In this document: one piece after another, positions 1 through 64,000 of the stretch
Layout of the letters: every line of letters starts with the position of its first letter
How positions within the stretch are numbered: position 1 is the first letter of the stretch
Assembly (NCBI RefSeq): GCF_024502345.1
Contig: NZ_JALDNN010000001.1
DNA length: 64,000 bases
Direction: 5' to 3' (one strand)
DNA from: Escherichia coli
Lineage (GTDB): Bacteria; Pseudomonadota; Gammaproteobacteria; Enterobacterales; Enterobacteriaceae
Translations under genes and position numbers: made by a program
The notes under the pieces: model-generated
What the model saw: only the letters and a program-made list of their open reading frames with translations
What the model was told of the DNA's origin: nothing
Database searches by the model: none

Positions 1-2
1 AA

Positions 3-1118
3 ACGTTTTTTGTCAAATTTATTGAACAACTGAAAGGTATTTCGGTTGAGGATGATGTTGAATTCAATTTTTTTGAATTGGGTGGTTCCGGATATCTCGA
101 AAATCCAACTACGGATTTGATGGCTTTGTTTATGGGAGCCCAGAAAATGGTGCCGCCATGGTTGCTCAAAGCATTGCTATGTTGCCTAGATGATTCCCTC
201 GATGTTGATGAAATTGATTTCACTTCTCTGGAGCTAATGAGAGAGGCCCGAACAGAAGATGGGAAATATATTGATATTCTTATCAGACATGATGAATTCA
301 TTATAGGTATTGAGCATAAAGTTCTGGCTGATACATATAATCCTTTTCCCAGCTATGTAAGTCTCATTGATAGTTACGGCGGCAACAATCAAAAACTATT
401 TCGCTGTATATTAAAGCCTGACGGTAACAGCGCTAAAGGCGTAGACGGTTGGCAACTGATCAATTATTCACTGCTGCTGGAAACCGCCATTCGACGTCTG
501 GGGTTAGAGATGATGAATCAAGAGTTCAGCAAGTGGACTTTTTTTTATCAGGAGTTTTTAAGTCATCTTAAAAAATTGAGTGAGGTTAGTATGGATAAGG
601 TATCTGATAAAAATGTGGAGTTTGTCACTGAAAATTTCACAGCTTTGATAAAATCGGTTCAATTGCTGGAAATGTACCAAAATGCTATCACCGAGGAAGC
701 TAAATCGGTTGTCTCAGAGGTATTGCCTGATATTCATATTGCAACAGGTATTAATAACTGGAAGGGTTACTATAAAGCAATTCATCTGATGCCGGGATGC
801 TGGGGGCAAGGTAAAACAGGAATTACGTTAGTTTATCGCCCTTCAGAGGATGGTCGAGATGAAGCTGAGTTCTATGTATATGGATGGATACATTCAGATG
901 ATTACCCTGAAGTTAATGCACTAAAAGAAGAAATAAGAGTTGCTTTAAGTGCTGGAGATTTCATTCCAACAGCTAGCCCTGAGGACTATGAAGTATCAAT
1001 TACTGGGAAGGGGAAAGTGCTTGAACTGAGTTTTTGGGGGAATACGAGAAGCAAAAAAGATGCACTGGTTCTTCTTAAGGATATGACTAAGTGGATGGAC
1101 TCAAAAATAAGAACATAA
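3..1118 (+). CDS. Hypothetical protein, 5'-truncated at window edge; PD-(D/E)XK-type nuclease motif (YIDILIRHDEFIIGIEHK)
   Basis: Frame is open from nt 3 with no in-frame stop before the track ORF at 78 (TTG), so the true start is upstream; stop TAA at 1116-1118; AT-rich codon usage. Confidence 0.7.
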   Translation, partial: TFFVKFIEQLKGISVEDDVEFNFFELGGSGYLENPTTDLMALFMGAQKMVPPWLLKALLCCLDDSLDVDEIDFTSLELMREARTEDGKYIDILIRHDEFIIGIEHKVLADTYNPFPSYVSLIDSYGGNNQKLFRCILKPDGNSAKGVDGWQLINYSLLLETAIRRLGLEMMNQEFSKWTFFYQEFLSHLKKLSEVSMDKVSDKNVEFVTENFTALIKSVQLLEMYQNAITEEAKSVVSEVLPDIHIATGINNWKGYYKAIHLMPGCWGQGKTGITLVYRPSEDGRDEAEFYVYGWIHSDDYPEVNALKEEIRVALSAGDFIPTASPEDYEVSITGKGKVLELSFWGNTRSKKDALVLLKDMTKWMDSKIRT

Positions 1119-1222
1119 AGTAATATGACTGAGTGATGACGATCTTTTTTAAATTGTGGATTATTAGGCTGGTAATTGAAGCGCCGAATAGACAGATATT
1201 AGAATAAAAGGAGAATATTCAA

Positions 1223-2404
1223 ATGATTTATCAGTGTGATACTTGCAGTAGAACGACTTTTGAGGTTAATTGTCCCTGGTGTAGTGGAGTTTCGCCTGTA
1301 AAAACGTCTGCATGGGGTTCAGCATCATCGACCTCACAAGCAATAGATATACAACGTATGACACCATTGAATCCATCGTTTTATCCAGAGTTTCAGTATC
1401 GTTCAAAGGGTGTTCTAAAAGATCTATTTGGGAAAAAGAAAGAGCAAACTCAGCTTAATCAATTGCTTGAAAATGTTCTCGAAAAATACTCCAGTTTAAA
1501 AGATCCATATTTTACTAACTTCATTTACACTTCCAGATTCTCACATAATAATAAATCGGAAGCAGATTACTCAACAGATAATGGTACATACTCCGAATTA
1601 CAACTTTTCCGTGAGGTGTTGGTCAGAAAAGGGTTCAATGAGCTTGAAGAGTTACCTGAGCTATTAGATAAATTACTCCTTACCACGTCATTTAACGCTC
1701 TTTATTATGGTTTCGCTAAGGAAGTTAAACGGCATATTAAATCTACACTTACTGAATCCTTGAAGTCATGGATTGAGGAAGCGGGTACCACTTTTAGGGC
1801 AGATCTTTCATTGTTTCTATTCTATATATGGAGCAATAAAATAGAGTTCTCATCAGTAGAGTTCAATGAAAAAGCGGAGGCTACGCCTGGTGTTCCTTTA
1901 GTTTCATTTGATGAAGTTAAAAAATACTTAGCTGTGTGCGAACATATTTATTTTGATATTCTGGTTGATAGATTAGCTACACGGCTCGAACATTTTAACC
2001 CTAACAAATTCGTCACCATGTATTTAGTTGATGCAATGGACGGTTTCCAGTTTGAAGATTTCCTTGTGGAAGTATTCCAGACTATGGGCTATGACGTCAA
2101 AGAAACCAAGAGAACGCAAGATCAGGGGGCAGATCTCTTCGTCACTCGATTTGGTAAGGATATGGTTATTCAGGCGAAAAATTATTCTGGTTCTGTAGGT
2201 AACTCGGCGGTGCAGCAGGTGATCTCTGCTAAAACATTCTATGGTTGTGATGAGGCGATGGTTGTGACTAATTCCTACTTCACTCGCTCTGCGAAAGAGT
2301 TAGCTGAATCAGCCTTGGTACGTCTGATCGACAGGGATGAACTGCAAAAGTATCTGGATGATTACAATCAGAAGATAATTGAAGATTTCCAGTCAAACTC
2401 GTAA
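1223..2404 (+). CDS. Zinc-ribbon protein with C-terminal Mrr-like (type IV restriction endonuclease-like) catalytic domain
   Basis: 393-aa ORF; SD aaggag upstream of ATG; N-terminal CDTC...CPWC; C-terminal GADLFVTRFGKDMVIQAKNYSG...LIDRDEL resembles the Mrr_cat core (D ... QxK). Confidence 0.75.
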   Translation: MIYQCDTCSRTTFEVNCPWCSGVSPVKTSAWGSASSTSQAIDIQRMTPLNPSFYPEFQYRSKGVLKDLFGKKKEQTQLNQLLENVLEKYSSLKDPYFTNFIYTSRFSHNNKSEADYSTDNGTYSELQLFREVLVRKGFNELEELPELLDKLLLTTSFNALYYGFAKEVKRHIKSTLTESLKSWIEEAGTTFRADLSLFLFYIWSNKIEFSSVEFNEKAEATPGVPLVSFDEVKKYLAVCEHIYFDILVDRLATRLEHFNPNKFVTMYLVDAMDGFQFEDFLVEVFQTMGYDVKETKRTQDQGADLFVTRFGKDMVIQAKNYSGSVGNSAVQQVISAKTFYGCDEAMVVTNSYFTRSAKELAESALVRLIDRDELQKYLDDYNQKIIEDFQSNS

Positions 2405-2589
2405 CTTTGCAGTCATATAGATATAGCAAAGGACAGGTAGGCCTCCGTGAGAGGGGGACTTACCTGTGCAGATTCTGTGCTCAAAGTTATCCAAGTCTAT
2501 CTATTTACTGCCAATTACAGTAAAATGAGTAAACAATTACAGCAAAGTTTCGCAATGCACTGCTATGTAACTCATTGATCCTGCGTAGA

Positions 2590-15839: not shown

Positions 15840-16418
15840 ATGAGTGAAAAAAGCATTGTTCAGGAAGCGCGGGATATTCAGCTGGCAATGGAATTGATCA
15901 CCCTGGGCGCTCGTTTGCAGATGCTGGAAAGCGAAACACAGTTAAGTCGCGGACGCCTGATAAAACTTTATAAAGAACTGCGCGGAAGCCCACCGCCGAA
16001 AGGCATGCTGCCATTCTCAACCGACTGGTTTATGACCTGGGAACAAAACGTTCATGCTTCGATGTTCTGTAATGCATGGCAGTTTTTACTGAAAACCGGT
16101 TTGTGTAATGGCGTCGATGCGGTGATCAAAGCCTACCGTTTATACCTTGAACAGTGCCCACAAGCAGAAGAAGGACCACTGCTGGCATTAACCCGTGCCT
16201 GGACATTGGTGCGGTTTGTTGAAAGTGGATTACTGCAACTTTCCAGCTGCAACTGCTGCGGCGGCAATTTTATTACCCACGCTCACCAGCCTGTTGGCAG
16301 CTTTGCCTGCAGCTTATGTCAACCGCCATCCCGGGCAGTAAAAAGACGTAAACTTTCCCAGAATCCTGCCGATATTATCCCACAACTGCTGGATGAACAG
16401 AGAGTACAGGCTGTTTAA
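15840..16418 (+). CDS. flhC: Flagellar master regulator FlhC
   Basis: 192 aa; starts 2 nt after the flhD stop. Confidence 0.96.
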
Positions 16419-44934: not shown

Positions 44935-45051
44935 TATGACTCAAATACACGAAATCATTCGCGTTGCATCGAGGCGGCAACTGAGTGAACTCCCATGAGC
45001 ATAGATAACTATGTGAATGGGATGAGCGAAGGCAGTCAACGAAGAGGCAGC

Positions 45052-45504
45052 GTGAAGGATAAAGTGTATAAGCGTCCCGTTTCGATCTTAGTGGTCATCT
45101 ACGCACAAGATACGAAACGGGTGCTGATGTTGCAGCGGCGTGATGACCCCGATTTCTGGCAGTCGGTAACCGGCAGCGTGGAAGAGGGTGAAACCGCGCC
45201 GCAAGCTGCCATGCGCGAAGTAAAGGAAGAGGTCACCATTGATGTTGTCGCCGAACAACTGACCTTAATTGACTGTCAGCGCACGGTAGAGTTTGAAATT
45301 TTTTCACATTTACGTCATCGCTATGCGCCGGGCGTGACGCGTAATACGGAATCATGGTTCTGTCTTGCGCTTCCGCACGAGCGGCAGATCGTTTTCACTG
45401 AACATCTGGCTTACAAGTGGCTTGATGCGCCTGCTGCGGCGGCGCTCACTAAGTCCTGGAGCAACCGGCAGGCGATTGAACAGTTTGTAATTAACGCTGC
45501 CTGA
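45052..45504 (+). CDS. nudB: Dihydroneopterin triphosphate diphosphatase NudB
   Basis: GTG start ([11 protein letters not shown]) gives 150 aa; Nudix box [21 protein letters not shown]. Confidence 0.9.
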
Positions 45505-45532
45505 ACAGGCAGGGCTATCTGGAGATATTTTT

Positions 45533-46273
45533 ATGGCAGGTCATAGTAAATGGGCCAACACCAGACATCGTAAAGCTGCGCAGGATGCTAAGCGCGGTAA
45601 AATCTTCACTAAAATCATTCGTGAGCTGGTAACCGCGGCTAAGCTGGGCGGTGGCGATCCGGACGCTAACCCGCGTCTGCGTGCAGCAATTGATAAAGCA
45701 CTGTCTAACAACATGACCCGCGACACACTGAACCGCGCAATTGCACGTGGTGTGGGCGGTGATGATGATGCAAACATGGAAACCATCATCTACGAAGGTT
45801 ACGGTCCTGGCGGCACGGCAATCATGATTGAATGTCTGTCTGACAACCGCAACCGTACCGTTGCTGAAGTGCGTCATGCATTCAGCAAATGTGGCGGTAA
45901 CCTCGGTACTGATGGTTCCGTAGCCTATCTGTTCAGCAAAAAAGGCGTGATCTCCTTCGAGAAAGGCGATGAAGACACCATCATGGAAGCAGCATTGGAA
46001 GCAGGTGCTGAAGACGTTGTGACCTATGATGACGGCGCGATTGATGTCTACACTGCATGGGAAGAAATGGGTAAAGTGCGCGACGCTCTGGAAGCGGCAG
46101 GTCTGAAAGCAGACAGCGCGGAAGTTTCCATGATCCCGTCCACCAAAGCTGATATGGATGCAGAAACCGCACCGAAACTGATGCGTCTGATCGATATGCT
46201 GGAAGATTGCGACGACGTGCAGGAAGTTTACCATAACGGTGAAATCTCTGATGAGGTTGCAGCGACTCTCTGA
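45533..46273 (+). CDS. yebC: YebC/PmpR-family transcriptional regulator
   Basis: 246 aa. Confidence 0.95.
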
Positions 46274-46307
46274 TTAGGCCTGCTAAACAGCAAAACGGAG
46301 ACGCGTG

Positions 46308-46829
46308 ATGGCTATTATTCTCGGCATTGACCCGGGTTCGCGCGTGACCGGCTATGGCGTCATCCGCCAGGTAGGCAGGCAACTGTCCTACCTGGGTAGC
46401 GGATGCATACGCACCAAGGTGGATGATTTACCGTCTCGTCTGAAGCTCATCTATGCGGGCGTGACGGAAATCATCACCCAGTTCCAGCCAGATTATTTCG
46501 CCATTGAACAAGTCTTTATGGCCAAAAATGCCGACTCGGCTCTGAAACTGGGGCAGGCGCGCGGCGTGGCGATTGTGGCGGCGGTGAATCAGGAATTGCC
46601 GGTATTTGAATACGCGGCACGTCAGGTAAAGCAAACGGTGGTAGGTATTGGTAGTGCCGAAAAAAGCCAGGTGCAGCATATGGTCCGCACCTTGCTGAAA
46701 CTGCCCGCTAATCCACAGGCGGATGCCGCCGATGCGCTGGCGATTGCCATCACCCACTGCCACGTTAGTCAGAATGCGATGCAGATGAGCGAATCGCGGC
46801 TGAACCTGGCGAGAGGGCGACTGCGTTAA
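46308..46829 (+). CDS. ruvC: Holliday junction resolvase RuvC
   Basis: Start [12 protein letters not shown] gives 173 aa. Confidence 0.96.
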
Positions 46830-46830
46830 G

Positions 46831-47433
46831 TTATACCGCCTCGGTCAGTTCCGGCTGAGGCGTTTCCACTCCCTCCGCATGAATCAACACCAAACCCGGA
46901 TGATGCCACAAACTGGCTGGCGTGACGGTTTTACGCTCCCACGGAATAGAACCCAGGAACCAGAATTTCCAGAAAGTGAGTTTTGCATTCGGATTGCTAT
47001 TTAACAATTCTCCAAACGTCTCTATTTCACCCACCGGAATACATAGCGCTTCTTTATAAATATCAAAAACAAATTTTGAACAGAACTGGCGCGAAGATTC
47101 GTATTTAAAACCGGTGTGGTAAAGTTTGCGTAGCCGGGAGGGAACCTGTTCAACAATTCGTTGTTTTTGTTGTTCTGTCAGCCCAGCGTCTAATCGCTTT
47201 ATAGCATAGCGTTGATTAGACGAACGTTTAATAAAACGAGATAGCGTGGTGATGGTTGAAAGGGGAACCCGGCTTTCTGCAACCAGGAAGTCTTCACCGT
47301 TATGACCGATAATGATCCCGACGTGATTACTCCAGCAATTTGATGCGGCTGATATTTGACCAAATAAGGCAGCACCTATACATGTAAAGACGATATCTCC
47401 AATTTCATATTCAGCAGGGTAATTAATATTCAC
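46831..47433 (-). CDS. yebB: DUF830 protein YebB
   Basis: 200 aa. Confidence 0.88.
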
Positions 47434-47637
47434 GTTGTCATTCCATTGAAATAGATACGAATATACGTAATAGCATAAAAAATTATTTTTTCAGGAGGCG
47501 CAATGTATATTTTTATTACGCATTTCTTCACTGAATACGTAATATTTAAATATTTGCTTCCAATATAACCTGTAGAATAAATCATACTGCGCCATTTTTC
47601 AGTTCATCGAGACACCTCGCAAGTTTTCTTCATCCTT

Positions 47638-47657
47638 CGCTGGATATCTATCCAGCA
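47638..47657. promoter_or_regulatory. LexA (SOS) box upstream of ruvAB
   Basis: cgCTGgatatctatcCAGca, a CTG-N10-CAG motif about 50 nt upstream of ruvA. Confidence 0.8.
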
Positions 47658-47706
47658 TTTTTTTATCATACAGCATTATCTTTGATTCATTACGCAGGAG
47701 CGTCAT

Positions 47707-48318
47707 GTGATAGGCAGACTCAGAGGCATCATCATTGAAAAACAACCCCCGCTGGTGTTAATTGAAGTGGGCGGCGTAGGCTATGAAGTGCATATGCCGA
47801 TGACCTGTTTTTATGAACTCCCTGAAGCGGGTCAGGAAGCGATCGTTTTCACCCACTTTGTGGTGCGTGAAGACGCGCAACTGCTGTACGGTTTTAACAA
47901 TAAACAAGAGCGCACGTTGTTTAAAGAGTTAATCAAAACCAACGGCGTCGGCCCGAAGTTGGCGCTGGCGATCCTCTCCGGAATGTCAGCGCAGCAGTTC
48001 GTTAATGCCGTTGAACGTGAAGAAGTGGGAGCACTGGTGAAACTGCCGGGCATTGGTAAAAAAACCGCCGAGCGTTTAATTGTCGAAATGAAAGACCGAT
48101 TTAAAGGTTTGCACGGCGATCTCTTTACGCCAGCCGCCGATCTGGTGCTCACGTCACCTGCCAGCCCGGCGACCGACGATGCTGAACAGGAAGCGGTTGC
48201 CGCGCTGGTGGCGCTGGGCTATAAACCACAAGAAGCAAGCCGCATGGTGAGCAAAATCGCTCGCCCTGACGCCAGCAGTGAAACATTAATTCGCGAAGCC
48301 CTACGCGCCGCGTTATGA
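47707..48318 (+). CDS. ruvA: Holliday junction branch migration protein RuvA
   Basis: 203 aa; GTG start. Confidence 0.96.
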
Positions 48319-48323
48319 GGTAA

Positions 48324-49337
<1,014 letters not shown>

Positions 49338-49338
49338 G

Positions 49339-49468
49339 TCGGATTGGTCGCTCGCACCGCATCCGACATTGGCAGTGTGCCTGATGCGACGCTATTCGCG
49401 TCTTATCAGGCATATACCAGAGATAGCGAACCGTAGGTCGGAAAAGGCGCTCGCGCCGCATCCGACAT
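49339..49468. repeat. REP/BIME cluster (three palindromic units)
   Basis: gtcggattggtcgctcgcaccgcatccgac; gcctgatgcgacgctattcgcgtcttatcaggc; gtaggtcggaaaaggcgctcgcgccgcatccgac. Confidence 0.8.
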
Positions 49469-49480
49469 TTTAGGTTTAAA

Positions 49481-50266
49481 TTAACTGGCCTGTTTTTTCA
49501 TCATACTGATAATAAACAATAGTGCAGCACATAGTACTACCGACGGACCCGCCGGCGTATCGTAAAATGCGGAAAAGGTTAAACCGCCAGTCACTGCCAC
49601 CATCCCCACCAAAACAGCGACACCAGCCATCTGTTCCGGCGTGCGGGCAAAGCGACGCGCAGTAGCTGCAGGAATAATCAGCAACGAAGTAATAATCAAC
49701 GCACCGACAAATTTCATCGCTACACCAATCGTCAATGCCGTCACCAGCATCAACAACAATTTCACGCGCTGTAATTTCACACCATCAACAAACGCCAGAT
49801 CCGGGCTAATCGTCATCGACAGCAAATTGCGCCATTGCCAGAACAAAATAGCCACCACGATGACCACGCCAATTGCAATAGAGATGAGATCTTCTGGCGT
49901 CACTGCCAGTAAATCACCGAACAGGTAAGCCATCAAATCAACACGAATGTTAGACATCAGACTAACGACCACCAGGCCCAGCGACAGGGCACTGTGCGCC
50001 ATAATCCCTAATAACGTGTCGATCGCCAGCTGTGGACGCTTCTCCAGCCATACCAGACCGCCCGCCAGCAGCAGCGTAACGGCAATTACCGCATAGAATG
50101 GATTCACGTCCAGCAACAAACCAAACGCGACACCAAGTAATGAGGCATGAGCCAGCGTATCACCGAAATAAGACATACGACGCCAGACTACAAACGAACC
50201 CAGCGGACCCGCGGCACAGGCGAGCATGATCCCGGCTAACCAACCGGGAAATAATAATTCAATCAT
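49481..50266 (-). CDS. znuB: Zinc ABC transporter permease ZnuB
   Basis: 261 aa. Confidence 0.95.
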
Positions 50267-51018
50267 GAGCGATCATTTCCCCGACGCAAAACAATTCGTC
50301 CCTGTAAATCGTGACGATGATTATGATGATGGCGATAGATACCCAGTTGTTCAGCACCACGAGGACCAAACATTGAAATAAACTCCGGATGCAGGGAAAC
50401 AACTTCCGGTGTGCCGGAACAACAAATGTGGTGATTCAGGCACAGCACTTCATCGGTTTTTGCCATCACCAGATGCAGATCGTGAGAAACCATTAAAACG
50501 CCACAATCCAGTTCACGACGCAGTTGGTCAATAAGGTCATATAACGCCACCTGACCATTTACATCCACGCCTTGAGTGGGTTCATCCAGCACTAATAATT
50601 GCGGGCGATTTAACAATGCTCGCGCTAACAGTACACGCTGCGTTTCGCCACCAGAGAGCTTTTGCATCGGTGCGTTAATCAGGTGCCCGGCCTGGACACG
50701 TTTCAGTGCAGGCAAAATATCTTCTTTATGTGTACCAGGGCGTAAGCGTAAAAAACGGTTTACGGTCAGTGGCAACGTGGTGTCGAGATACAGCTTCTGC
50801 GGTACATAGCCGATGCGCAGTTTTCCGTTGCGCTTGATAACCCCTTCATCGGGTGTTACCAGCCCGAGCACTACCCGTACCAGTGTCGACTTACCTGCGC
50901 CATTTGGCCCAAGTAAAGTCAAAATTTTTCCAGGTTTAAGTTCCAGCGACACATCAGAGAGGACGCGGCGTTGGCCAAAAGAAACCGAGACATTTTCCAG
51001 GGAAACCAGACTTGTCAT
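50263..51018 (-). CDS. znuC: Zinc ABC transporter ATPase ZnuC
   Basis: 251 aa; Walker [10 protein letters not shown]; 4-nt overlap with znuB. Confidence 0.95.
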
Positions 51019-51042
51019 GTTAATTTTAGTCTTGCAGTAGTC

Positions 51043-51065
51043 ATGAAATGTTATAATATCACACT
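51043..51065. promoter_or_regulatory. Zur box in the divergent znuA / znuCB promoter region
   Basis: tgaaatgttataatatcacactt, near-palindromic around GAAATGTTATAATATCACA. Confidence 0.8.
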
Positions 51066-51096
51066 TCTCATATTCATTACGATGATTGGTCGCATT

Positions 51097-52029
51097 ATGT
51101 TACATAAAAAAACGCTTCTTTTCGCAGCATTATCCGCCGCTCTCTGGGGAGGTGCAACACAGGCCGCAGATGCCGCCGTTGTCGCTTCGCTTAAACCCGT
51201 TGGGTTCATCGCTTCTGCCATTGCTGATGGGGTAACAGAAACGGAGGTTTTACTTCCTGACGGCGCTTCAGAACATGATTATTCACTGCGTCCATCGGAT
51301 GTAAAACGCTTACAGAACGCGGACTTAGTCGTTTGGGTTGGCCCGGAGATGGAAGCGTTTATGCAAAAACCGGTAAGCAAATTACCAGAAGCGAAGCAGG
51401 TAACGATTGCGCAGCTTGAAGATGTGAAACCGCTACTGATGAAAAGTATTCACGGCGATGATGATGATCACGACCACGCGGAAAAAAGTGACGAAGATCA
51501 CCATCACGGCGATTTCAACATGCATCTTTGGCTTTCCCCAGAGATAGCGCGGGCTACAGCGGTTGCAATCCATGGAAAATTAGTGGAACTTATGCCGCAA
51601 AGTCGAGCCAAACTTGACGCCAACCTGAAGGATTTTGAGGCACAATTAGCCTCAACCGAAACGCAGGTTGGTAACGAGCTCGCGCCGCTCAAGGGGAAAG
51701 GTTATTTCGTTTTTCACGATGCTTACGGCTATTTCGAAAAACAGTTCGGACTGACACCGCTTGGTCATTTTACCGTTAACCCTGAGATTCAACCTGGCGC
51801 GCAGCGTTTACATGAAATAAGAACACAGTTGGTTGAGCAAAAAGCAACCTGCGTTTTTGCTGAGCCACAGTTCAGGCCAGCGGTCGTTGAGAGCGTCGCA
51901 CGAGGGACATCCGTTCGTATGGGAACGTTGGATCCCCTGGGGACGAATATCAAACTGGGTAAAACAAGCTATTCAGAATTCCTGAGTCAATTAGCCAACC
52001 AGTATGCGAGCTGCCTGAAAGGAGATTAA
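51097..52029 (+). CDS. znuA: Zinc ABC transporter periplasmic binding protein ZnuA
   Basis: Internal start [12 protein letters not shown] gives 310 aa; His-rich loop [19 protein letters not shown]; the track ORF is extended to 352 aa. Confidence 0.95.
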
Positions 52030-52044
52030 TGAGGAAGTGATTAC

Positions 52045-53367
52045 GTGCAACAGATAGCCCGCTCTGTCGCCCTGGCGTTTAATAATTTACCGCGACCACA
52101 CCGCGTTATGTTGGGGTCGCTCACCGTTCTTACTCTGGCCGTCGCTGTCTGGCGGCCCTATGTTTATCACCGCGATGCCACGCCAATTGTCAAAACCATT
52201 GAGCTGGAACAGAACGAAATTCGTTCGCTCTTGCCTGAAGCCAGTGAGCCGATTGATCAAGCTGCACAAGAAGATGAAGCCATTCCCCAGGACGAACTGG
52301 ATGACAAAATCGCCGGTGAAGCGGGCGTGCATGAATATGTTGTTTCCACTGGCGATACGCTAAGCAGCATTCTCAATCAGTATGGTATTGATATGGGTGA
52401 TATCACCCAACTGGCTGCGGCCGACAAAGAATTGCGTAACCTGAAAATCGGTCAACAACTCTCCTGGACATTAACCGCGGACGGCGAACTGCAGCGCCTC
52501 ACCTGGGAAGTGTCTCGTCGTGAAACCCGAACCTATGACCGTACTGCCGCTAACGGTTTTAAAATGACCAGCGAAATGCAGCAAGGAGAGTGGGTTAACA
52601 ATCTGCTGAAAGGTACCGTCGGGGGGAGCTTTGTTGCCAGCGCCAGAAACGCCGGTTTAACCAGCGCCGAAGTGAGCGCAGTGATTAAAGCCATGCAGTG
52701 GCAAATGGATTTCCGCAAACTGAAAAAAGGCGATGAATTTGCGGTATTAATGTCTCGAGAAATGCTTGATGGTAAACGTGAGCAAAGCCAGCTGCTGGGC
52801 GTACGTTTGCGTTCAGAAGGTAAAGATTATTACGCTATCCGCGCTGAAGATGGCAAATTCTACGATCGTAACGGTACTGGTCTGGCGAAAGGATTCTTGC
52901 GATTCCCGACGGCGAAACAGTTCCGTATCTCGTCTAACTTTAACCCGCGTCGTACTAATCCGGTGACCGGTCGCGTTGCACCACACAGAGGTGTTGATTT
53001 CGCCATGCCGCAGGGTACGCCAGTGCTTTCAGTGGGTGACGGTGAAGTGGTGGTTGCCAAACGCAGTGGCGCAGCAGGTTATTATGTGGCTATTCGTCAT
53101 GGTCGCAGCTACACCACGCGTTATATGCACTTGCGCAAGATTCTGGTGAAACCGGGACAGAAGGTGAAACGTGGCGACCGTATCGCGCTTTCCGGTAATA
53201 CCGGACGTTCAACCGGGCCGCATCTGCACTATGAAGTATGGATAAACCAGCAGGCCGTAAACCCGCTGACGGCAAAACTGCCGCGTACCGAAGGGCTGAC
53301 CGGCTCCGATCGTCGCGAATTCCTGGCGCAGGCCAAAGAGATTGTGCCGCAGCTACGGTTTGATTAA
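52045..53367 (+). CDS. mepM: Murein DD-endopeptidase MepM (YebA); LysM plus M23 peptidase
   Basis: 440 aa; GTG start. Confidence 0.93.
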
Positions 53368-53486
53368 TTAACATCCATTCGCAGCCGGTACGCAGTCAGT
53401 ACCGGCTTTTTTTATTTGGTGCGGGGCAAGTTGCGCCGCTACACTATCACCAGATTGATTTTTGCCTTATCCGAAACTGGAAAAGC

Positions 53487-54458
53487 ATGGAAACGAAAAA
53501 AAATAATAGCGAATACATTCCTGAGTTTGATAAATCCTTTCGCCACCCGCGCTACTGGGGAGCATGGCTGGGCGTAGCAGCGATGGCGGGTATCGCTTTA
53601 ACGCCGCCAAAGTTCCGTGATCCCATTCTGGCACGGCTGGGACGTTTTGCCGGACGACTGGGAAAAAGCTCACGCCGTCGTGCGTTAATCAATCTGTCGC
53701 TCTGCTTTCCAGAACGTAGTGAAGCTGAACGCGAAGCGATTGTTGATGAGATGTTTGCCACCGCGCCGCAAGCGATGGCAATGATGGCTGAGTTGGCAAT
53801 ACGCGGGCCGGAGAAAATTCAGCCGCGCGTTGACTGGCAAGGGCTGGAGATCATCGAAGAGATGCGGCGTAATAACGAGAAAGTTATCTTTCTGGTGCCG
53901 CACGGTTGGGCCGTCGATATTCCTGCCATGCTGATGGCCTCGCAAGGGCAGAAAATGGCAGCGATGTTCCATAATCAGGGCAACCCGGTTTTTGATTATG
54001 TCTGGAACACGGTGCGTCGTCGCTTTGGCGGTCGTCTGCATGCGAGAAATGACGGTATTAAACCATTCATCCAGTCGGTACGTCAGGGGTACTGGGGATA
54101 TTATTTACCCGATCAGGATCATGGCCCAGAGCACAGCGAATTTGTGGATTTCTTTGCCACCTATAAAGCGACGTTGCCCGCGATTGGTCGTTTGATGAAA
54201 GTGTGCCGTGCGCGCGTTGTACCGCTGTTTCCGATTTATGATGGCAAGACGCATCGTCTGACGATTCAGGTGCGCCCACCGATGGATGATCTGTTAGAGG
54301 CGGATGATCATACGATTGCGCGGCGGATGAATGAAGAAGTCGAGATTTTTGTTGGTCCGCGACCAGAACAATACACCTGGATACTAAAATTGCTGAAAAC
54401 TCGCAAACCGGGCGAAATCCAGCCGTATAAGCGCAAAGATCTTTATCCCATCAAATAA
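53487..54458 (+). CDS. lpxM: Lipid A myristoyltransferase LpxM (MsbB)
   Basis: 323 aa. Confidence 0.95.
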
Positions 54459-54545
54459 AAAAGCCTCTCGCGAGGAGAGGCCTTCGCCTGATGATAAGTT
54501 CAAGTTTGCTTCAGAATATTCGAAATCTGTTGAACTATCATTGAA

Positions 54546-54585
54546 CTGTAGGCCGGATGTGGCGTTTTCGCCGCATCCGGCAACG
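54546..54585. repeat. REP element
   Basis: ctgtaggccggatgtggcgttttcgccgcatccggcaacg. Confidence 0.75.
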
Positions 54586-54588
54586 TAC

Positions 54589-56031
54589 TTACTCTACCGT
54601 TAAAATACGCGTGGTATTAGTAGAACCCACGGTACTCATCACGTCGCCCTGGGTGACAATCACCAGGTCACCAGACATCAAGTAACCTTTATCGCGCAGC
54701 AGATTAACCGCTTCGCTGGCAGCTGCTACGCCGTCATTAGCGCTATCAAAGTGCACCGGCGTAACGCCACGATAGAGAGCAGTCAGGTTCAGCGTACGTT
54801 CATGGCGCGACATGGCGAAAATTGGTAGACCAGAGCTGATACGGGAGGTCATCAGCGCGGTACGACCCGATTCGGTCATGGTAATGATCGCCGTAACGCC
54901 TTTCAGGTGGTTAGCTGCGTACATTGCTGACATGGCAATAGCTTCTTCCACATTGTCGAACTGAACGTCCAGACGGTGTTTAGAAACGTTGATGCTCGGG
55001 ATTTTTTCCGCACCCAGGCAAACGCGCGCCATGGCTGCAACAGTTTCTGACGGATACTGCCCAGCGGCAGTTTCTGCAGACAGCATCACAGCGTCAGTAC
55101 CATCCAGAACGGCGTTTGCTACGTCCATGACTTCTGCACGCGTCGGCATCGGGTTAGTAATCATTGACTCCATCATCTGGGTCGCCGTGATTACCGCGCG
55201 GTTAAGCTGACGTGCACGACGGATCAACGCTTTCTGAATGCCGACCAGTTCCGGGTCGCCAATTTCCACACCGAGGTCGCCACGTGCAACCATTACCACG
55301 TCAGAGGCGAGGATGATGTCATCCATTGCATCCTGGCTGCAAACGGCTTCCGCACGTTCAACCTTGGCAACAATTTTCGCATCACATCCTGCATCGCGTG
55401 CCAGGCGACGGGCATAGTTCAGATCTTCGCCACAGCGTGGGAAGGAGACAGCCAGGTAATCTACGCCAATCAACGCCGCAGTCTTAATGTCTGCTTTGTC
55501 TTTTTCGGTCAGCGCTTCAGCCGACAAACCGCCGCCAAGTTTGTTGATACCTTTATTGTTGGAGAGGGGACCACCGACGGTGACTTCGGTGAACACTTTC
55601 ATGCCCTGAACTTCCAGTACTTTTAACTGGACGCGACCATCGTCCAGCAGCAGGATGTCGCCAGGCACAACGTCAGCAGGCAGGCCTTTGTAGTCGATAC
55701 CGACTTTTTCTTTGTCGCCTTCACCTTTACCCAGGTTGGCGTCGAGCAGGAATTTATCCCCAATATTGAGGAAAACTTTGCCTTCTTTAAAGGTGGATAC
55801 ACGGATTTTGGGCCCCTGGAGGTCACCCAGAATAGCCACATGACGCCCCAGTTTTGCGGCAATCTCACGAACTTTATCCGCGCGCATTTTGTGATCTTCA
55901 GGCGAGCCGTGAGAAAAGTTCATACGTACAACGTTGGCACCCGCCGCGATAACTTTTTCAAGGTTATTATCGCGATCTGTTGCTGGGCCTAACGTGGTAA
56001 CGATTTTTGTTCTGCGAAGCCTTCTGGACAT
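54589..56031 (-). CDS. pykA: Pyruvate kinase II
   Basis: Internal start [16 protein letters not shown] gives 480 aa; the track ORF is extended by 47 aa. Confidence 0.95.
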
Positions 56032-56158
56032 GTAATACTCCGTTGACTGAAACAACCAGGTGTTGCTTGAACATGAAATCCGAATGAAATAACGCCGCGA
56101 TGGCGATAAATTAATCTCATTCGGATGTCGTATAAGATTAGGACAGTGACAGTCGCTT

Positions 56159-57028
56159 TTAGCGATCGTCACTTAAATTAAGTAACTGCTTATCAAAACG
56201 CGATTCCTTCAGCGCTTCCTTGACCCGCTTCAAGTTATCTCTGAATTTTGCACCGCGCCGCAAAGTAAATCCTGTCGCCAGCACATCTATCACGGTCAGC
56301 TGTGCAAGTCGAGAAACCATGGGCATATAAATGTCAGTATCTTCCGGTACGTCGAGGGTAATTGCCAGCGTTGCTTCCCGGGCGAGCGGGGTACCCGCAG
56401 AGGTGAGGGCAATCACCATAGCGTCGTTTTCGCGTGCCAGCTGCGCCAGCTCGACCAGATTTTTTGTTCTTCCGGTGTGAGAAATCAGCACCACCACGTC
56501 TCCGTCGCTACAATTCATACAACTCATGCGTTGCAGCACAATATCATCGGAGTACACCACCGGAACATTAAAACGAAAGAACTTATTCATCGCATCGTGG
56601 GCAACGGCGGCTGAAGAGCCTAATCCGAAAAAGGCGATTTTTTTTGCCTGAGTGAGCAAGTCGACGGCGCGGTTGATGGCAGATTTATCCAGTGAATGAC
56701 GGACATGATCGAGCGTTGCCATTGCGGACTCAAATATTTTCCCCGTGTATGATTCAACGCTGTCATCTTCATTGACGTTGCGATTAACATAGGGAGTGCC
56801 ATTCGCCAGACTTTGTGCCAGATGAAGTTTAAAATCAGGAAAACCGCGCGTGTCCATGCTGCGACAGAAACGATTCACCGTCGGTTCGCTAACATTGGCT
56901 TCCAGCGCCAGAGCAGCAATACTCGAATGGATCGCGTTATCGGGCGAAGCCAGAATGACCTCGGCAACTTTGCGCTCCGATTTGCTCAAATGTTCCAGCT
57001 GAGACTGGATTTTTTCCAGCATATTCAT
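56159..57028 (-). CDS. hexR: RpiR-family transcriptional repressor HexR
   Basis: 289 aa; HTH plus SIS domain. Confidence 0.94.
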
Positions 57029-57365
57029 GATGTAAAGAGACTCACGGGTAATGACGATTTCCGCACTGAAAGAAATCGAAATGCAGTTTTGTCAGATATT
57101 ACGCCTGTGTGCTGTGTTAATGACAAAAGCAGATAAAAAAGTTGTTATTTTTTTTCATAACATGATCAGTGTCAGATTTTTACCCAATGGAAAACGATGA
57201 TTTTTTTATCAGTTTTGCCGCACTTTACGCGCTTTTACCGTAATCGCACGGGTGGATAAGCGTTTACAGTTTTCGCAAGCTCGTAAAAGCAGTACAGTGC
57301 ACCGTAAGAAAATTACAAGTATACCCTGGCTTAAGTACCGGGTTAGTTAACTTAAGGAGAATGAC

Positions 57366-58841
57366 ATGGCGGTAACGCAAACAGCCCAGGCCTGTGACCT
57401 GGTCATTTTCGGCGCGAAAGGCGACCTTGCGCGTCGTAAATTGCTGCCTTCCCTGTATCAACTGGAAAAAGCCGGTCAGCTCAACCCGGACACCCGGATT
57501 ATCGGCGTAGGGCGTGCTGACTGGGATAAAGCGGCATATACCAAAGTTGTCCGCGAGGCGCTCGAAACTTTCATGAAAGAAACCATTGATGAAGGTTTAT
57601 GGGACACCCTGAGTGCACGTCTGGATTTTTGTAATCTCGATGTCAATGACACTGCTGCATTCAGCCGTCTCGGCGCGATGCTGGATCAAAAAAATCGTAT
57701 CACCATTAACTACTTTGCCATGCCGCCCAGCACTTTTGGCGCAATTTGCAAAGGGCTTGGCGAGGCAAAACTGAATGCCAAACCGGCACGCGTAGTCATG
57801 GAGAAACCGCTGGGGACGTCGCTGGCGACCTCGCAGGAAATCAATGATCAGGTTGGCGAATACTTCGAGGAGTGCCAGGTTTACCGTATCGACCACTATC
57901 TTGGTAAAGAAACGGTGCTGAACCTGTTGGCGCTGCGTTTTGCTAACTCCCTGTTTGTGAATAACTGGGACAATCGCACCATTGATCATGTTGAGATTAC
58001 CGTGGCAGAAGAAGTGGGGATCGAAGGGCGCTGGGGCTATTTTGATAAAGCCGGTCAGATGCGCGACATGATCCAGAACCACCTGCTGCAAATTCTTTGC
58101 ATGATTGCGATGTCTCCGCCGTCTGACCTGAGCGCAGACAGCATCCGCGATGAAAAAGTGAAAGTACTGAAGTCTCTGCGCCGCATCGACCGCTCCAACG
58201 TACGCGAAAAAACCGTACGCGGGCAATATACTGCGGGCTTCGCCCAGGGCAAAAAAGTGCCGGGATATCTGGAAGAAGAGGGCGCGAACAAGAGCAGCAA
58301 TACAGAAACCTTCGTGGCGATCCGCGTCGATATTGATAACTGGCGCTGGGCCGGTGTGCCATTCTACCTGCGTACTGGTAAACGTCTGCCGACCAAATGT
58401 TCTGAAGTCGTGGTCTATTTCAAAACACCTGAACTGAATCTGTTTAAAGAGTCGTGGCAGGATCTGCCGCAGAATAAACTGACTATCCGTCTGCAACCTG
58501 ATGAAGGCGTGGATATCCAGGTACTGAATAAAGTTCCTGGCCTTGACCACAAACATAACCTGCAAATCACCAAGCTGGATCTGAGCTATTCAGAAACCTT
58601 TAATCAGACGCATCTGGCGGATGCCTATGAACGTTTGCTGCTGGAAACCATGCGTGGTATTCAGGCACTGTTTGTACGTCGCGACGAAGTGGAAGAAGCC
58701 TGGAAATGGGTAGACTCCATTACTGAGGCGTGGGCGATGGACAATGATGCGCCGAAACCGTATCAGGCCGGAACCTGGGGACCCGTTGCCTCGGTGGCGA
58801 TGATTACCCGTGATGGTCGTTCCTGGAATGAGTTTGAGTAA
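57366..58841 (+). CDS. zwf: Glucose-6-phosphate 1-dehydrogenase
   Basis: 491 aa. Confidence 0.97.
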
Positions 58842-59075
58842 TATCTGCGCTTATCCTTTATGGTTATTTTACCGGTAACATGATCTTGCACAGATTGTAG
58901 AACAATTTTTACACTTTCAGGCCTCGTGCGGATTCACCCACGAGGCTTTTTTTATTACACTGACTGAAACGTTTTTGCCCTATGAGCTCCGGTTACAGGC
59001 GTTTCACTCATAAATCCTCTGAATGAAACGCGTTGTGAATCATCCTGCTCTGACAACTCAATTTCAGGAGCCTTT

Positions 59076-60887
59076 ATGAATCCACAATTGTTACGCGTAA
59101 CAAATCGAATCATTGAACGTTCGCGCGAGACTCGCTCTGCTTATCTCGCCCGGATAGAACAAGCGAAAACGTCGACCGTTCATCGTTCGCAGTTGGCATG
59201 CGGTAACCTGGCACACGGTTTCGCTGCCTGCCAGCCAGAAGACAAAGCCTCTTTGAAAAGCATGTTGCGTAACAATATCGCCATCATCACCTCCTATAAC
59301 GACATGCTCTCCGCTCACCAGCCTTATGAACACTATCCAGAAATCATTCGTAAAGCCCTGCATGAAGCGAATGCGGTTGGTCAGGTTGCGGGCGGTGTTC
59401 CGGCGATGTGTGATGGTGTCACCCAGGGGCAGGATGGAATGGAATTGTCGCTGCTAAGCCGCGAAGTGATAGCGATGTCTGCGGCGGTCGGGCTGTCCCA
59501 TAACATGTTTGATGGTGCTCTGTTCCTCGGGGTGTGCGACAAGATTGTCCCGGGTCTGACGATGGCAGCCCTGTCGTTTGGTCATTTGCCTGCGGTGTTT
59601 GTGCCGTCTGGACCGATGGCAAGCGGTTTGCCAAATAAAGAAAAAGTGCGTATTCGCCAGCTTTATGCCGAAGGTAAAGTGGACCGCATGGCCTTACTGG
59701 AGTCAGAAGCCGCGTCTTATCATGCACCGGGAACATGTACTTTCTACGGTACTGCCAACACCAACCAGATGGTGGTGGAGTTTATGGGGATGCAGTTGCC
59801 AGGCTCTTCTTTTGTTCATCCGGATTCTCCGCTGCGCGATGCTTTGACCGCTGCCGCTGCGCGTCAGGTTACACGCATGACCGGTAATGGTAATGAATGG
59901 ATGCCGATCGGTAAGATGATCGATGAGAAAGTGGTGGTGAACGGTATCGTTGCACTGCTGGCGACCGGTGGTTCCACTAACCACACCATGCACCTGGTGG
60001 CGATGGCGCGCGCGGCCGGTATTCAGATTAACTGGGATGACTTCTCTGACCTTTCTGATGTTGTACCGCTGATGGCACGTCTCTACCCGAACGGTCCGGC
60101 CGATATTAACCACTTCCAGGCGGCAGGTGGCGTACCGGTTCTGGTGCGTGAACTGCTCAAAGCTGGCCTGCTGCATGAAGATGTCAATACGGTGGCAGGC
60201 TTTGGTCTGTCTCGTTATACCCTTGAACCATGGCTGAATAATGGTGAACTGGACTGGCGGGAAGGGGCGGAAAAATCACTCGACAGCAATGTGATCGCTT
60301 CCTTCGAACAACCTTTCTCTCATCATGGTGGGACAAAAGTGTTAAGCGGTAACCTGGGCCGTGCGGTTATGAAAACCTCTGCCGTGCCGGTTGAGAACCA
60401 GGTGATTGAAGCGCCAGCGGTTGTTTTTGAAAGCCAGCATGACGTTATGCCGGCCTTTGAAGCGGGTTTGCTGGACCGCGATTGTGTCGTTGTTGTCCGT
60501 CATCAGGGGCCAAAAGCGAACGGAATGCCAGAATTACATAAACTCATGCCGCCACTTGGTGTATTATTGGACCGGTGTTTCAAAATTGCGTTAGTTACCG
60601 ATGGACGACTCTCCGGCGCTTCAGGTAAAGTGCCGTCAGCTATCCACGTAACACCAGAAGCCTACGATGGCGGGCTGCTGGCAAAAGTGCGCGACGGGGA
60701 CATCATTCGTGTGAATGGACAGACAGGCGAACTGACGCTGCTGGTAGACGAAGCGGAACTGGCTGCTCGCGAACCGCACATTCCTGACCTGAGCGCGTCA
60801 CGCGTGGGAACAGGACGTGAATTATTCAGCGCCTTGCGTGAAAAACTGTCCGGTGCCGAACAGGGCGCAACCTGTATCACTTTTTAA
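59076..60887 (+). CDS. edd: Phosphogluconate dehydratase
   Basis: 603 aa. Confidence 0.97.
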
Positions 60888-60923
60888 GACGACAAATTTG
60901 TAATCAGGCGAGAGAAAACTCTG

Positions 60924-61565
60924 ATGAAAAACTGGAAAACAAGTGCAGAATCAATCCTGACCACCGGCCCGGTTGTACCGGTTATCGTGGTAAAAAAACT
61001 GGAACACGCGGTGCCGATGGCAAAAGCGTTGGTTGCTGGTGGGGTGCGCGTTCTGGAAGTGACTCTGCGTACCGAGTGTGCAGTTGACGCTATCCGTGCT
61101 ATCGCCAAAGAAGTGCCTGAAGCGATTGTGGGTGCCGGTACGGTGCTGAATCCACAGCAGCTGGCAGAAGTCACTGAAGCGGGTGCACAGTTCGCAATTA
61201 GCCCGGGTCTGACCGAGCCGCTGCTGAAAGCTGCTACCGAAGGGACTATTCCTCTGATTCCGGGGATCAGCACTGTTTCCGAACTGATGCTGGGTATGGA
61301 CTACGGTTTGAAAGAGTTCAAATTCTTCCCGGCTGAAGCTAACGGCGGCGTGAAAGCCCTGCAGGCGATCGCGGGTCCGTTCTCCCAGGTCCGTTTCTGC
61401 CCGACGGGTGGTATTTCTCCGGCTAACTACCGTGACTACCTGGCGCTGAAAAGCGTGCTGTGCATCGGTGGTTCCTGGCTGGTTCCGGCAGATGCGCTGG
61501 AAGCGGGCGATTACGACCGCATTACTAAGCTGGCGCGTGAAGCTGTAGAAGGCGCTAAGCTGTAA
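60924..61565 (+). CDS. eda: KDPG/KHG aldolase
   Basis: 213 aa. Confidence 0.97.
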
Positions 61566-61573
61566 AAGTCAAA

Positions 61574-61600
61574 ATGCCCGATCGAGGATCGGGCATTTTT
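61574..61600. terminator. Bidirectional rho-independent terminator between convergent eda and purT
   Basis: atgcccgatc-gag-gatcgggcat hairpin flanked by A-run and T-run. Confidence 0.8.
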
Positions 61601-61620
61601 GTAGCGTTTTTTTGCCGGGT

Positions 61621-62799
61621 TTAACCCTGTACTTTTACCTGTCCGGCGGCGTGCTTCGCGCGTTCAATGGCGTCAACAACACTCTCTGCAGTAGCCAGTG
61701 CCACCCCCAGACGACGGCTGCCATCAATTTCCGGCTTACCAAATAAACGAATCTGCAAATCTGCGCCTACGGCATTCTGCACATTATCAAACGTGACATT
61801 CTGACTGGTCAGTTGTGGCAGAATAACGGCAGAAGCTGCAGGACCATACTGACGGATCCCGCCAACCGGAAGTCCGAGGAAGGCACGTACATGCAGGGCA
61901 AACTCTGAGAGATCTTGAGAAATTAACGTCACCATCCCGGTATCATGTGGACGAGGGGAGACCTCACTGAAAATCACCTCATCACCACAGACAAACAGCT
62001 CGACACCAAACAGACCATAACCGCCCAGTGCCAGCACCACTTTACGGGCAATCTCCTGCGCACGTTCAAGGGCAAGCGGGCTCATTTGCTGTGGTTGCCA
62101 GGATTCACGGTAGTCGCCATCTTCCTGGCGATGACCTACTGGTGCACAGAAATGGACGCCATCCACCGCGCTGACGGTTAGCAGGGTAATTTCGAAGTCA
62201 AACTTAACGACGCCTTCAACAATTACGCGGCCCGCTCCGGCGCGACCGCCTTGCTGAGCGTATTCCCATGCCTGAGCAAGTTGCTCTGCAGAGCGAATAA
62301 ACGTCTGCCCCTTGCCGGAAGAGCTCATCACCGGTTTTACAATGCAGGGATAGCCAATGGCGGCAACCGCCTCGCGGAAAAGGCTTTCGCTATCGGCAAA
62401 ACGATAAGTGGAAGTGGGCAGCTGCAGCTCTTCTGCCGCCAGGCGACGGATACCCTCGCGATTCATCGTTAATTTCGTTGCGCGAGCGCAGGGGACAACA
62501 TTCAGTCCTTCCTCTTCAAGTTGGATCAGCATATCGGTGGCAATAGCTTCGATCTCCGGCACGATATAATGTGGTTTTTCCAGTTCAACCACACGGCGTA
62601 ATGCATCACCATCAAGCATATTAATGACATGGGAGCGATGCGCGACATGCATGGCTGGTGCGTCGGCATAGCGATCGACGGCAATCACCTCTACGCCGAG
62701 ACGCTGACACTCGATTGCCACTTCTTTACCCAGTTCACCGGAGCCTAATAACATCACGCGAGTTGCTGCCGGACGCAGCGCAGTGCCTAATAACGTCAT
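61621..62799 (-). CDS. purT: Formate-dependent GAR transformylase PurT
   Basis: 392 aa. Confidence 0.96.
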
Positions 62800-62836
62800 A
62801 ACGAATATCCCCTGATTAATTCCGCGCGCAGTATAA

Positions 62837-62852
62837 ACGAAAACGTTTGCGT
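62837..62852. promoter_or_regulatory. PurR operator upstream of purT
   Basis: acgaaaacgtttgcgt, the palindromic PUR box. Confidence 0.8.
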
Positions 62853-62895
62853 GTGTCTTTATTGCTGGTGTTGATTTCTCAACCGAAAAGAAATA

Positions 62896-62915
62896 TACTG
62901 TATAAAATCACAGTT
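62896..62915. promoter_or_regulatory. LexA (SOS) box upstream of yebG
   Basis: taCTGTataaaatcACAGtt, a CTGT-N8-ACAG motif about 20 nt upstream of yebG. Confidence 0.85.
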
Positions 62916-62932
62916 ATTATGAGAGGCTGCAA

Positions 62933-63223
62933 ATGGCGGTTGAAGTTAAATACGTAGTCATTCGTGAGGGCGAAGAGAAAATGTCGTTTACCAGCAAAAA
63001 GGAAGCCGATGCTTATGACAAAATGCTTGATACGGCGGATCTGCTTGACACCTGGCTGACAAATTCTCCAGTGCAAATGGAAGACGAGCAACGTGAAGCC
63101 CTTTCGCTATGGCTGGCAGAACAAAAAGATGTGCTGAGCACCATTCTGAAAACCGGCAAATTACCGTCCCCACAGGTCGTCGGTGCTGAATCCGAAGAGG
63201 AAGATGCCTCACACGCGGCCTGA
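62933..63223 (+). CDS. yebG: DNA damage-inducible protein YebG
   Basis: 96 aa. Confidence 0.93.
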   Translation: MAVEVKYVVIREGEEKMSFTSKKEADAYDKMLDTADLLDTWLTNSPVQMEDEQREALSLWLAEQKDVLSTILKTGKLPSPQVVGAESEEEDASHAA

Positions 63224-63241
63224 AGCAACTTGCGCTCCTGA

Positions 63242-63646
<405 letters not shown>

Positions 63647-63970
63647 TGGCTTCTGATAATTCGATTGACCGTTGGCGGATGCGGCGCGAGTGCCTTGTCC
63701 GCCCACAACACACCACAATCGTAGGCCTGAGAAGACGCAACAGCGTAGCATCGGGCAATCAGCATCATACTGTGCCACTCAAAACGTCAAACTACTTTCA
63801 CCTAAAATACCCTTATCACCTGATATACAGTAAACACCTTACCTGGCGCGAATTTCTTTGAATAACGGCCAACCGCCCCGCTTATTTGCGCATCTTTTGT
63901 CTCGATATACATTTTCTGACATCCTCATCCACTATGCTACAGGCACTAAAATGGTTATTGAGGAGCAAAT

Positions 63971-64000
63971 ATGGCTAACCTGTTAAATCAACTGCAATCC
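63971..64000 (+). CDS. yebE: First codons of YebE-like inner membrane protein (3'-truncated by window end)
   Basis: aggag SD followed by ATG GCT AAC CTG TTA AAT CAA CTG CAA TCC (MANLLNQLQS); position matches yebE in K-12. Confidence 0.45.
   Translation, partial: MANLLNQLQS

Follow-up and report, generated by a model that had tools for sequence, protein, structure and literature searches.

LexA operators upstream of ruvAB and yebG in Escherichia coli and a possible second role of the ruvA palindrome in termination

Introduction

In Escherichia coli, the SOS box of the ruv genes was reportedly first described by Shinagawa et al. 1988 and Benson et al. 1988. The recognition of yebG as an SOS gene is credited to Lomba et al. 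1997, with confirmation reported by Fernandez de Henestrosa et al. 2000 and Courcelle et al. 2001. LexA binding data for E. coli are reported in Shinagawa 1988, Fernandez de Henestrosa 2000, and Wade 2005.

Both ruvAB and yebG are listed among the LexA-regulated genes of E. coli in a review (PMC6590174) and are counted as canonical SOS genes shared with the Vibrionaceae (PMC3323433). The consensus of the SOS box is quoted as TACTG(TA)5CAGTA (PMC11228462; PMC6590174), and in strain K-12 the boxes TTCGCTGGATATCTATCCAGCATTT (ruvA) and TATACTGTATAAAATCACAGTTATT (yebG) were found upstream of UV-induced genes (PMC3009722). In the same study, a single UV-induced transcript was observed to span yebG and yebF, and yebF proved fully LexA-dependent. 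RNA-seq values for the response to AZT are available for all three main genes (PMC11228462, Table 1): yebG was induced 4.4-fold with a LexA dependence of 9.7-fold and a heterology index (HI) of 6.3, whereas ruvA was induced 2.0-fold with a dependence on LexA cleavage of 1.9-fold, and ruvB 2.8-fold with a dependence of 2.6-fold, the two sharing an HI of 7.6. SOS control of ruvAB is weak and lies atop substantial basal expression.

The closest described systems outside E. coli are those of Salmonella enterica and the Vibrionaceae. The yebG gene of S. enterica likewise carries one box 17 bp from its ATG, although the sequence of that box differs from the E. coli one, and it was induced 41-fold by nalidixic acid; Salmonella ruvA, on the other hand, showed no upregulation by nalidixic acid and was added to the list by hand (PMC8072944). 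In the ruvCAB cluster of the Vibrionaceae, a LexA site lies between ruvC and ruvAB, where a secondary promoter is presumed, and in some species ruvC additionally has a LexA site of its own (PMC3323433). Some of these species also carry insertions between ruvC and ruvAB, which resemble the position of yebB and yobI in E. coli. A terminator role of the internal site is not discussed for the Vibrionaceae (PMC3323433), whereas the corresponding site in Enterobacterales is a strong hairpin with a T-run directly after the ruvC stop codon.

The analyzed window and its genes

The window, meaning the whole stretch of 64,000 nucleotides that was analyzed, is part of the E. coli chromosome. Of 5,426 complete E. 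coli genomes, 5,425 contain a match to its ruvA and yebG regions, several strains being 100% identical, and positions 45001-64000 differ from a near-identical annotated strain at only 6 of 19,000 positions. The gene calls at both loci are those of the RefSeq annotation of near-identical E. coli genomes, and the products are independently confirmed by the Pfam families RuvA_N/RuvA_C, RuvB_N, and YebG. At the first locus, the plus strand carries yobI (47503-47568), a gene for a small protein of 21 aa that in E. coli is the co-oriented gene 5' of the ruvA hairpin described below, followed by ruvA (47707-48318, GTG start) and ruvB (48327-49337), which belong to the same regulated operon. At the second locus, yebG (62933-63223, ATG start) is likewise encoded on the plus strand, with yebF (63290-63646, plus strand) downstream of it and co-induced by read-through (PMC3009722), and the divergent purT on the minus strand ends at 62799.

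The beginning of the window (1-2589, approximately 2.6 kb) is a strain-variable island annotated with a restriction endonuclease and a PD-(D/E)XK nuclease family protein. It adjoins a tRNA-Leu gene in the related genomes that carry it, is present at full length in only 212 of the 5,426 genomes, and is 100% identical to that of strain CT02; most E. coli genomes have the uvrC-pgsA-tRNA genes at this position instead.

Sequence and statistical strength of the two boxes

The SOS box of ruvAB, CGCTGGATATCTATCCAGCA, occupies 47638-47657 with its CTG-N10-CAG core at 47640-47655, and that of yebG, TACTGTATAAAATCACAGTT, occupies 62896-62915 with its core at 62898-62913. These are exactly the positions at which an earlier note on this DNA had placed LexA motifs, and its statement that they lie upstream of ruvA and yebG is borne out by the RefSeq annotation and the Pfam families of the downstream genes. 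In both sites, the invariant triplets CTG and CAG stand ten nucleotides apart and form the 16-bp core within the 20-bp frame of the consensus, and the sites end 49 nt before the GTG of ruvA and 17 nt before the ATG of yebG, respectively. The ruvA box departs from the consensus in its CG..CA flanks and its CTGG/CCAG half-sites. Letter for letter, the two boxes are identical to those published for K-12 (PMC3009722), and the comparison with that strain can be extended to the surroundings. At ruvAB, K-12 has the same 20-mer and flanks, the same promoter (TGGATA-17-TATCAT), the same distance to the ruvA GTG, and the same neighbors yobI and yebB, so that operator and promoter show no difference and the few positions at which the strain of the window departs from K-12 all lie further upstream, in the yobI region and in a weak second motif. 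At yebG, the box, the promoter (TTGATT-17-TATACT), the divergent purT, and the downstream yebF are all shared, and no difference was detected.

It may be asked whether the two motifs are chance matches to CTG-N10-CAG that have no regulatory role. The six-base pattern is indeed common, with 27 copies in the 64-kb window against 13.6 expected, 22 of which fall fully within coding sequence and five do not. The bare pattern was dropped as evidence for this lack of specificity, and a weight matrix over the full 20 positions was therefore built. This matrix was symmetrized and derived from 25 other E. coli LexA boxes, the ruvA and yebG boxes being excluded; of the 25 boxes, 16 are confirmed by the tables of PMC3009722 and nine are provisional. 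With this matrix, the yebG box scores 20.8 bits and the ruvA box 19.7 bits, ranking first and second in the window, and both lie inside the range of the reference boxes (12.9-26.4 bits, n = 25). The next best site reaches 11.9 bits, that is, 8-9 bits less, and 25 of the 27 CTG-N10-CAG copies score at most 10.3 bits, below every reference box. Of 300 shuffles that preserved the dinucleotide composition, none reached 19 bits, and a site of at least 19.7 bits is expected analytically 0.009 times per 64 kb. An HI-type index computed here amounts to 7.2 for ruvA and 4.0 for yebG (reference range 1.2-9.1). A matrix scan of the 64 kb detected no further LexA site in the range of the proven boxes. The third-best site (16387-16406, inside flhC) was rejected, as its 11.9 bits are below all reference boxes and about equal to the average shuffle maximum of 11.8 bits, and it lacks the CAG. 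A scan of both loci against Rfam found no known structured RNA overlapping them, the single sub-threshold lncRNA match being noise.

The overlap of both 20-mers with promoters, their match to experimentally characterized boxes, and their conservation (the ruvA box across an order, the yebG box across widely diverged homologues) equally speak against coincidence, for which we see next to no probability. The chance explanation is refuted for practical purposes.

A second CTG-N10-CAG motif upstream of ruvA

A second motif of this form, TACTGCGCCATTTTTCAGTT, is located at 47585-47604, 53 nt upstream of the main box, and could in principle place ruvAB under two LexA boxes. Its TACTG...CAGTT ends would fit such an arrangement, and the K-12 allele scores higher than the one in the window (9.4 bits). 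The motif nevertheless reaches only 3.4-3.7 bits here; its score in other strains ranges from -1.1 to 9.4 bits, so that no allele attains the 12.9 bits of the weakest reference box, and its GC-rich interior (GCGCCA) is unlike a (TA)n spacer. It lies upstream of the ruvA promoter and is not constant in E. coli: strains differ in its sequence, and R32_14_1F has no such motif but retains the main box and the promoter. The motif was accordingly judged to be no LexA site and was rejected as a second ruvA box for being weak, variable, and dispensable; control by two boxes is very improbable.

Promoters overlapping the boxes

A consensus scan predicted a sigma-70 promoter on the plus strand at each locus. 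The ruvAB promoter (47641-47669) consists of the -35 hexamer TGGATA (47641-47646), which lies inside the box, a 17-nt spacer, and the -10 hexamer TATCAT (47664-47669). The yebG promoter (62871-62899) has the -35 hexamer TTGATT (62871-62876), a 17-nt spacer, and the -10 hexamer TATACT (62894-62899), and the last four bases of this predicted -10 hexamer are at the same time the first four of the box. Judging from the spacing, the yebG box probably covers the transcription start as well. The same hexamer pairs are given for ruvAB and yebG in a genomic SELEX study of RpoD promoters (PMC3946193). Between yebG and yebF, the consensus scan found no terminator-like site, which fits the published single UV-induced yebG-yebF transcript (PMC3009722).

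Two further observations concern the promoter regions. In many Enterobacterales, the sequence after the T-run that follows the ruvA box reads TGnTATAAg and resembles an extended -10 element; E. coli, Enterobacter, and Citrobacter have TATCAT, TATTAT, or TATGAT one turn closer instead. With the box constant, the type of the ruvA promoter may thus not be the same in all lineages. The window also carries ACGAAAACGTTTGCGT (62838-62853) in the region that separates purT from the divergent yebG, where it overlaps the purT promoter hexamers AAGACA-18-TATACT. Its reverse complement, ACGCAAACGTTTTCGT, fits the PurR operator consensus, and the site is probably the known PurR box of purT.

Conservation of the ruvA box

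Eight diverse E. coli genomes were aligned across the yebB-ruvA spacer, and the ruvA box was invariant in seven of them. The eighth strain carries a C-to-T change (CAGCA to CAGTA) that brings the box closer to the consensus and raises it to 21.1 bits. In these eight genomes, hardly any variation is seen in the segment that begins about 12 nt before the box and comprises the box, the promoter, and the 5' UTR; the changes are concentrated upstream, in the yobI region and the second CTG-N10-CAG motif. Homology of the divergent strain R32_14_1F, which is devoid of yebB and yobI, to the window also starts about 12 nt before the box, and this point was therefore regarded as the left edge of the functional unit. 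The spacer itself (yebB-yobI-ruvA, 47434-47637) is unusually polymorphic in E. coli, with 96-100% identity over 327 nt, and its changes include yobI and the ribosome-binding region of that gene.

Beyond E. coli, a DNA-pattern scan for ruvA codons 29-37 with one genome per species delivered 120 Enterobacterales loci, from genera ranging from Escherichia to Photorhabdus, Providencia, Serratia, Pantoea, and Dickeya. A box of at least 12.9 bits was present upstream of ruvA in 111 of the 114 loci with enough upstream sequence, compared with 0 of 111 equal-sized coding-region controls, and in most cases 47-60 nt separate its end from the start codon. Across the order, hardly any change is seen in the core CTGGAT-N4-ATCCAG outside its four variable central bases. 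The commonest form, GGCTGGAT..ATCCAGCC, reaches only 14.6 bits and stands near the bottom of the proven boxes; some lineages may therefore have only weak LexA control or have lost it.

Conservation of the yebG box

Homologues of yebG were collected through a metagenome scan with a pattern coding for EADAYDKML, which yielded 106 usable loci and 75 distinct proteins. The box was found for 56 of the 75 distinct homologues but for only 1 of 67 controls. It ends 10-75 nt before the start codon (within 52 nt in 55 of the 56) with a mode of 15 nt, and the homologues that carry it share 47-100% identity with E. coli YebG over the first 75 residues. The other 19 have no LexA box within 200 nt upstream. 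On the metagenome contigs, these boxless homologues mostly belong to two recurring protein types (...IVVRNGEEKMTFATKK... and ...VRNGVELDKVFDVKK...), which suggests that in some lineages yebG is no longer part of the SOS regulon or is controlled through another operator. The sequence, position, statistical strength, and conservation of both boxes are results of the present analysis.

LexA control of ruvAB and yebG

Both sites are almost certainly LexA operators (SOS boxes) of the gammaproteobacterial type, serving ruvAB and yebG(-yebF), respectively. Nothing within the window was found to contradict this explanation. The claim of the earlier note that ruvAB and yebG are under SOS control is supported by the agreement of sequence quality, promoter position, cross-species conservation, and published experiments, of which the last supply the LexA dependence and the damage induction. 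The observation is confirmed and its interpretation supported, and both sites are operators long known to place these DNA-repair genes under LexA.

At these two particular promoters, we infer a steric mechanism. In the undamaged cell, a LexA dimer bound to each 20-bp palindrome would exclude RNA polymerase from the overlapping sigma-70 promoter, occluding the -35 hexamer at ruvAB and the -10 hexamer and, by spacing, the transcription start at yebG. Upon DNA damage, RecA filaments on single-stranded DNA trigger the self-cleavage of LexA, the operators become free, and the transcription of ruvAB and yebG(-yebF) increases. The yebG box, with its overlap of the -10 hexamer and its lower published heterology index, confers strong repression and induction, and the ruvAB box, with its non-consensus flanks and half-sites on a promoter of basal activity, confers only about twofold control.

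The ruvA box as a possible terminator

The palindrome of the ruvA box is also part of a terminator-like element on the plus strand (47639-47664), in which a 7-bp stem with a 4-nt loop (47639-47656) precedes a run of seven T (T7, 47658-47664). The element has the form of an intrinsic terminator, namely a GC-rich stem (four G-C pairs out of seven) directly followed by a U-tract, and in the window it lies 70 nt after the stop codon of the co-oriented yobI. The consensus scan called one terminator at ruvA, where 0.2 were expected, and the predicted RNA fold of the hairpin amounts to -10.6 kcal/mol (z = -5.3). The palindrome might thus have two functions: as DNA, it would be the LexA operator and contain the -35 hexamer, and as RNA, together with the T-run, it would act as an intrinsic terminator. 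Such a terminator would end the transcripts of yobI in E. coli and of ruvC in most Enterobacterales and thereby keep LexA-independent read-through away from ruvAB. This proposal, which we regard as slightly favored, adds to the explanation of the box as a LexA operator and does not replace it. The predicted transcription start of ruvA is 3' of the hairpin, which would consequently be absent from the ruvAB mRNA itself. In MG1655, where ruvA starts at 1,945,976, the T-run bases 47661-47665 of the window correspond to about 1,946,018-1,946,022 on the minus strand.

The cross-species data are consistent with a terminator. Among 111 Enterobacterales species, the predicted hairpin energy has a median of -14.6 kcal/mol, and in 102 of them the hairpin is directly followed by T6-7. 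A co-oriented ruvC is part of the locus in 109 species, and in 94 of these the first base of the 20-mer follows the ruvC stop codon at a distance of 1-51 nt, mostly 1-26 nt. In the commonest form, GGCTGGATATTCATCCAGCC directly precedes TTTTTT(T), and the ruvC-ruvA junction of Enterobacter cloacae, for example, reads TAA-tcagaaatca-GGCTGGATGTTTATCCAGCC-TTTTTTT. E. coli shares with a few relatives an insertion of yebB and other genes between ruvC and the element, which in E. coli also includes yobI. The GG..CC flanks of the commonest form lower the LexA score to 14.6 bits compared with 24.4 bits for TA..TA flanks, a loss of about 10 bits, yet they lengthen the stem by two G-C pairs.

The hairpins were found to be weaker where ruvC and the box have other genes between them (median -11.4 vs -14.6 kcal/mol, Mann-Whitney p = 8e-5, uncorrected for phylogeny), and GG..CC flanks occur in 7 of 15 separated loci vs 73 of 94 loci with an adjacent ruvC (p = 0.02, likewise uncorrected for phylogeny). 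The retention of the T-run did not differ significantly between separated and adjacent ruvC loci (p = 0.08), which together with the phylogenetic caveat weakens this near-versus-far comparison as an argument for termination. Two further points tell against a terminator role. Every LexA box is palindromic and folds as RNA, so that the stem by itself does not discriminate, and the T-run is the promoter spacer running into the -10 hexamer, the function of which could explain its conservation. Covariation cannot separate a hairpin from a LexA palindrome because both predict the same symmetric substitutions.

Taking both sides together, the ruvA element probably also terminates upstream transcription, as judged from its sequence features, and insulates ruvAB from the upstream unit, which would have been ruvC ancestrally and would be yobI in E. 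coli. A more far-reaching proposal is that across Enterobacterales the element has three overlapping jobs, as LexA operator, as -35 site of ruvA, and, with the T-run, as terminator of the constitutive upstream unit (ruvC in most species, yobI in E. coli), and that the LexA-weakening GG..CC flanks are kept for the strength of the stem, repressor affinity being traded against insulation; for this we consider the case evenly balanced. No description of an overlap between a terminator and the LexA operator at ruvA was found in the searchable literature.

Discussion

The finding recovers two members of the E. coli SOS regulon that have long been established, and its value in this respect is that of an annotation check. 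The two boxes illustrate that real operators can be recognized from the sequence alone.

At the ruvC-ruvA junction of more than 100 species, about 30 bp accommodate a LexA operator, a promoter, and a hairpin shaped like a terminator. The possible second use of the ruvA box in termination offers a modest, testable lead. A functional terminator would explain how the SOS-controlled ruvAB can be situated directly behind ruvC, which has been published as not SOS-regulated in E. coli, and also why most ruvA boxes have flanks that are poor for LexA.
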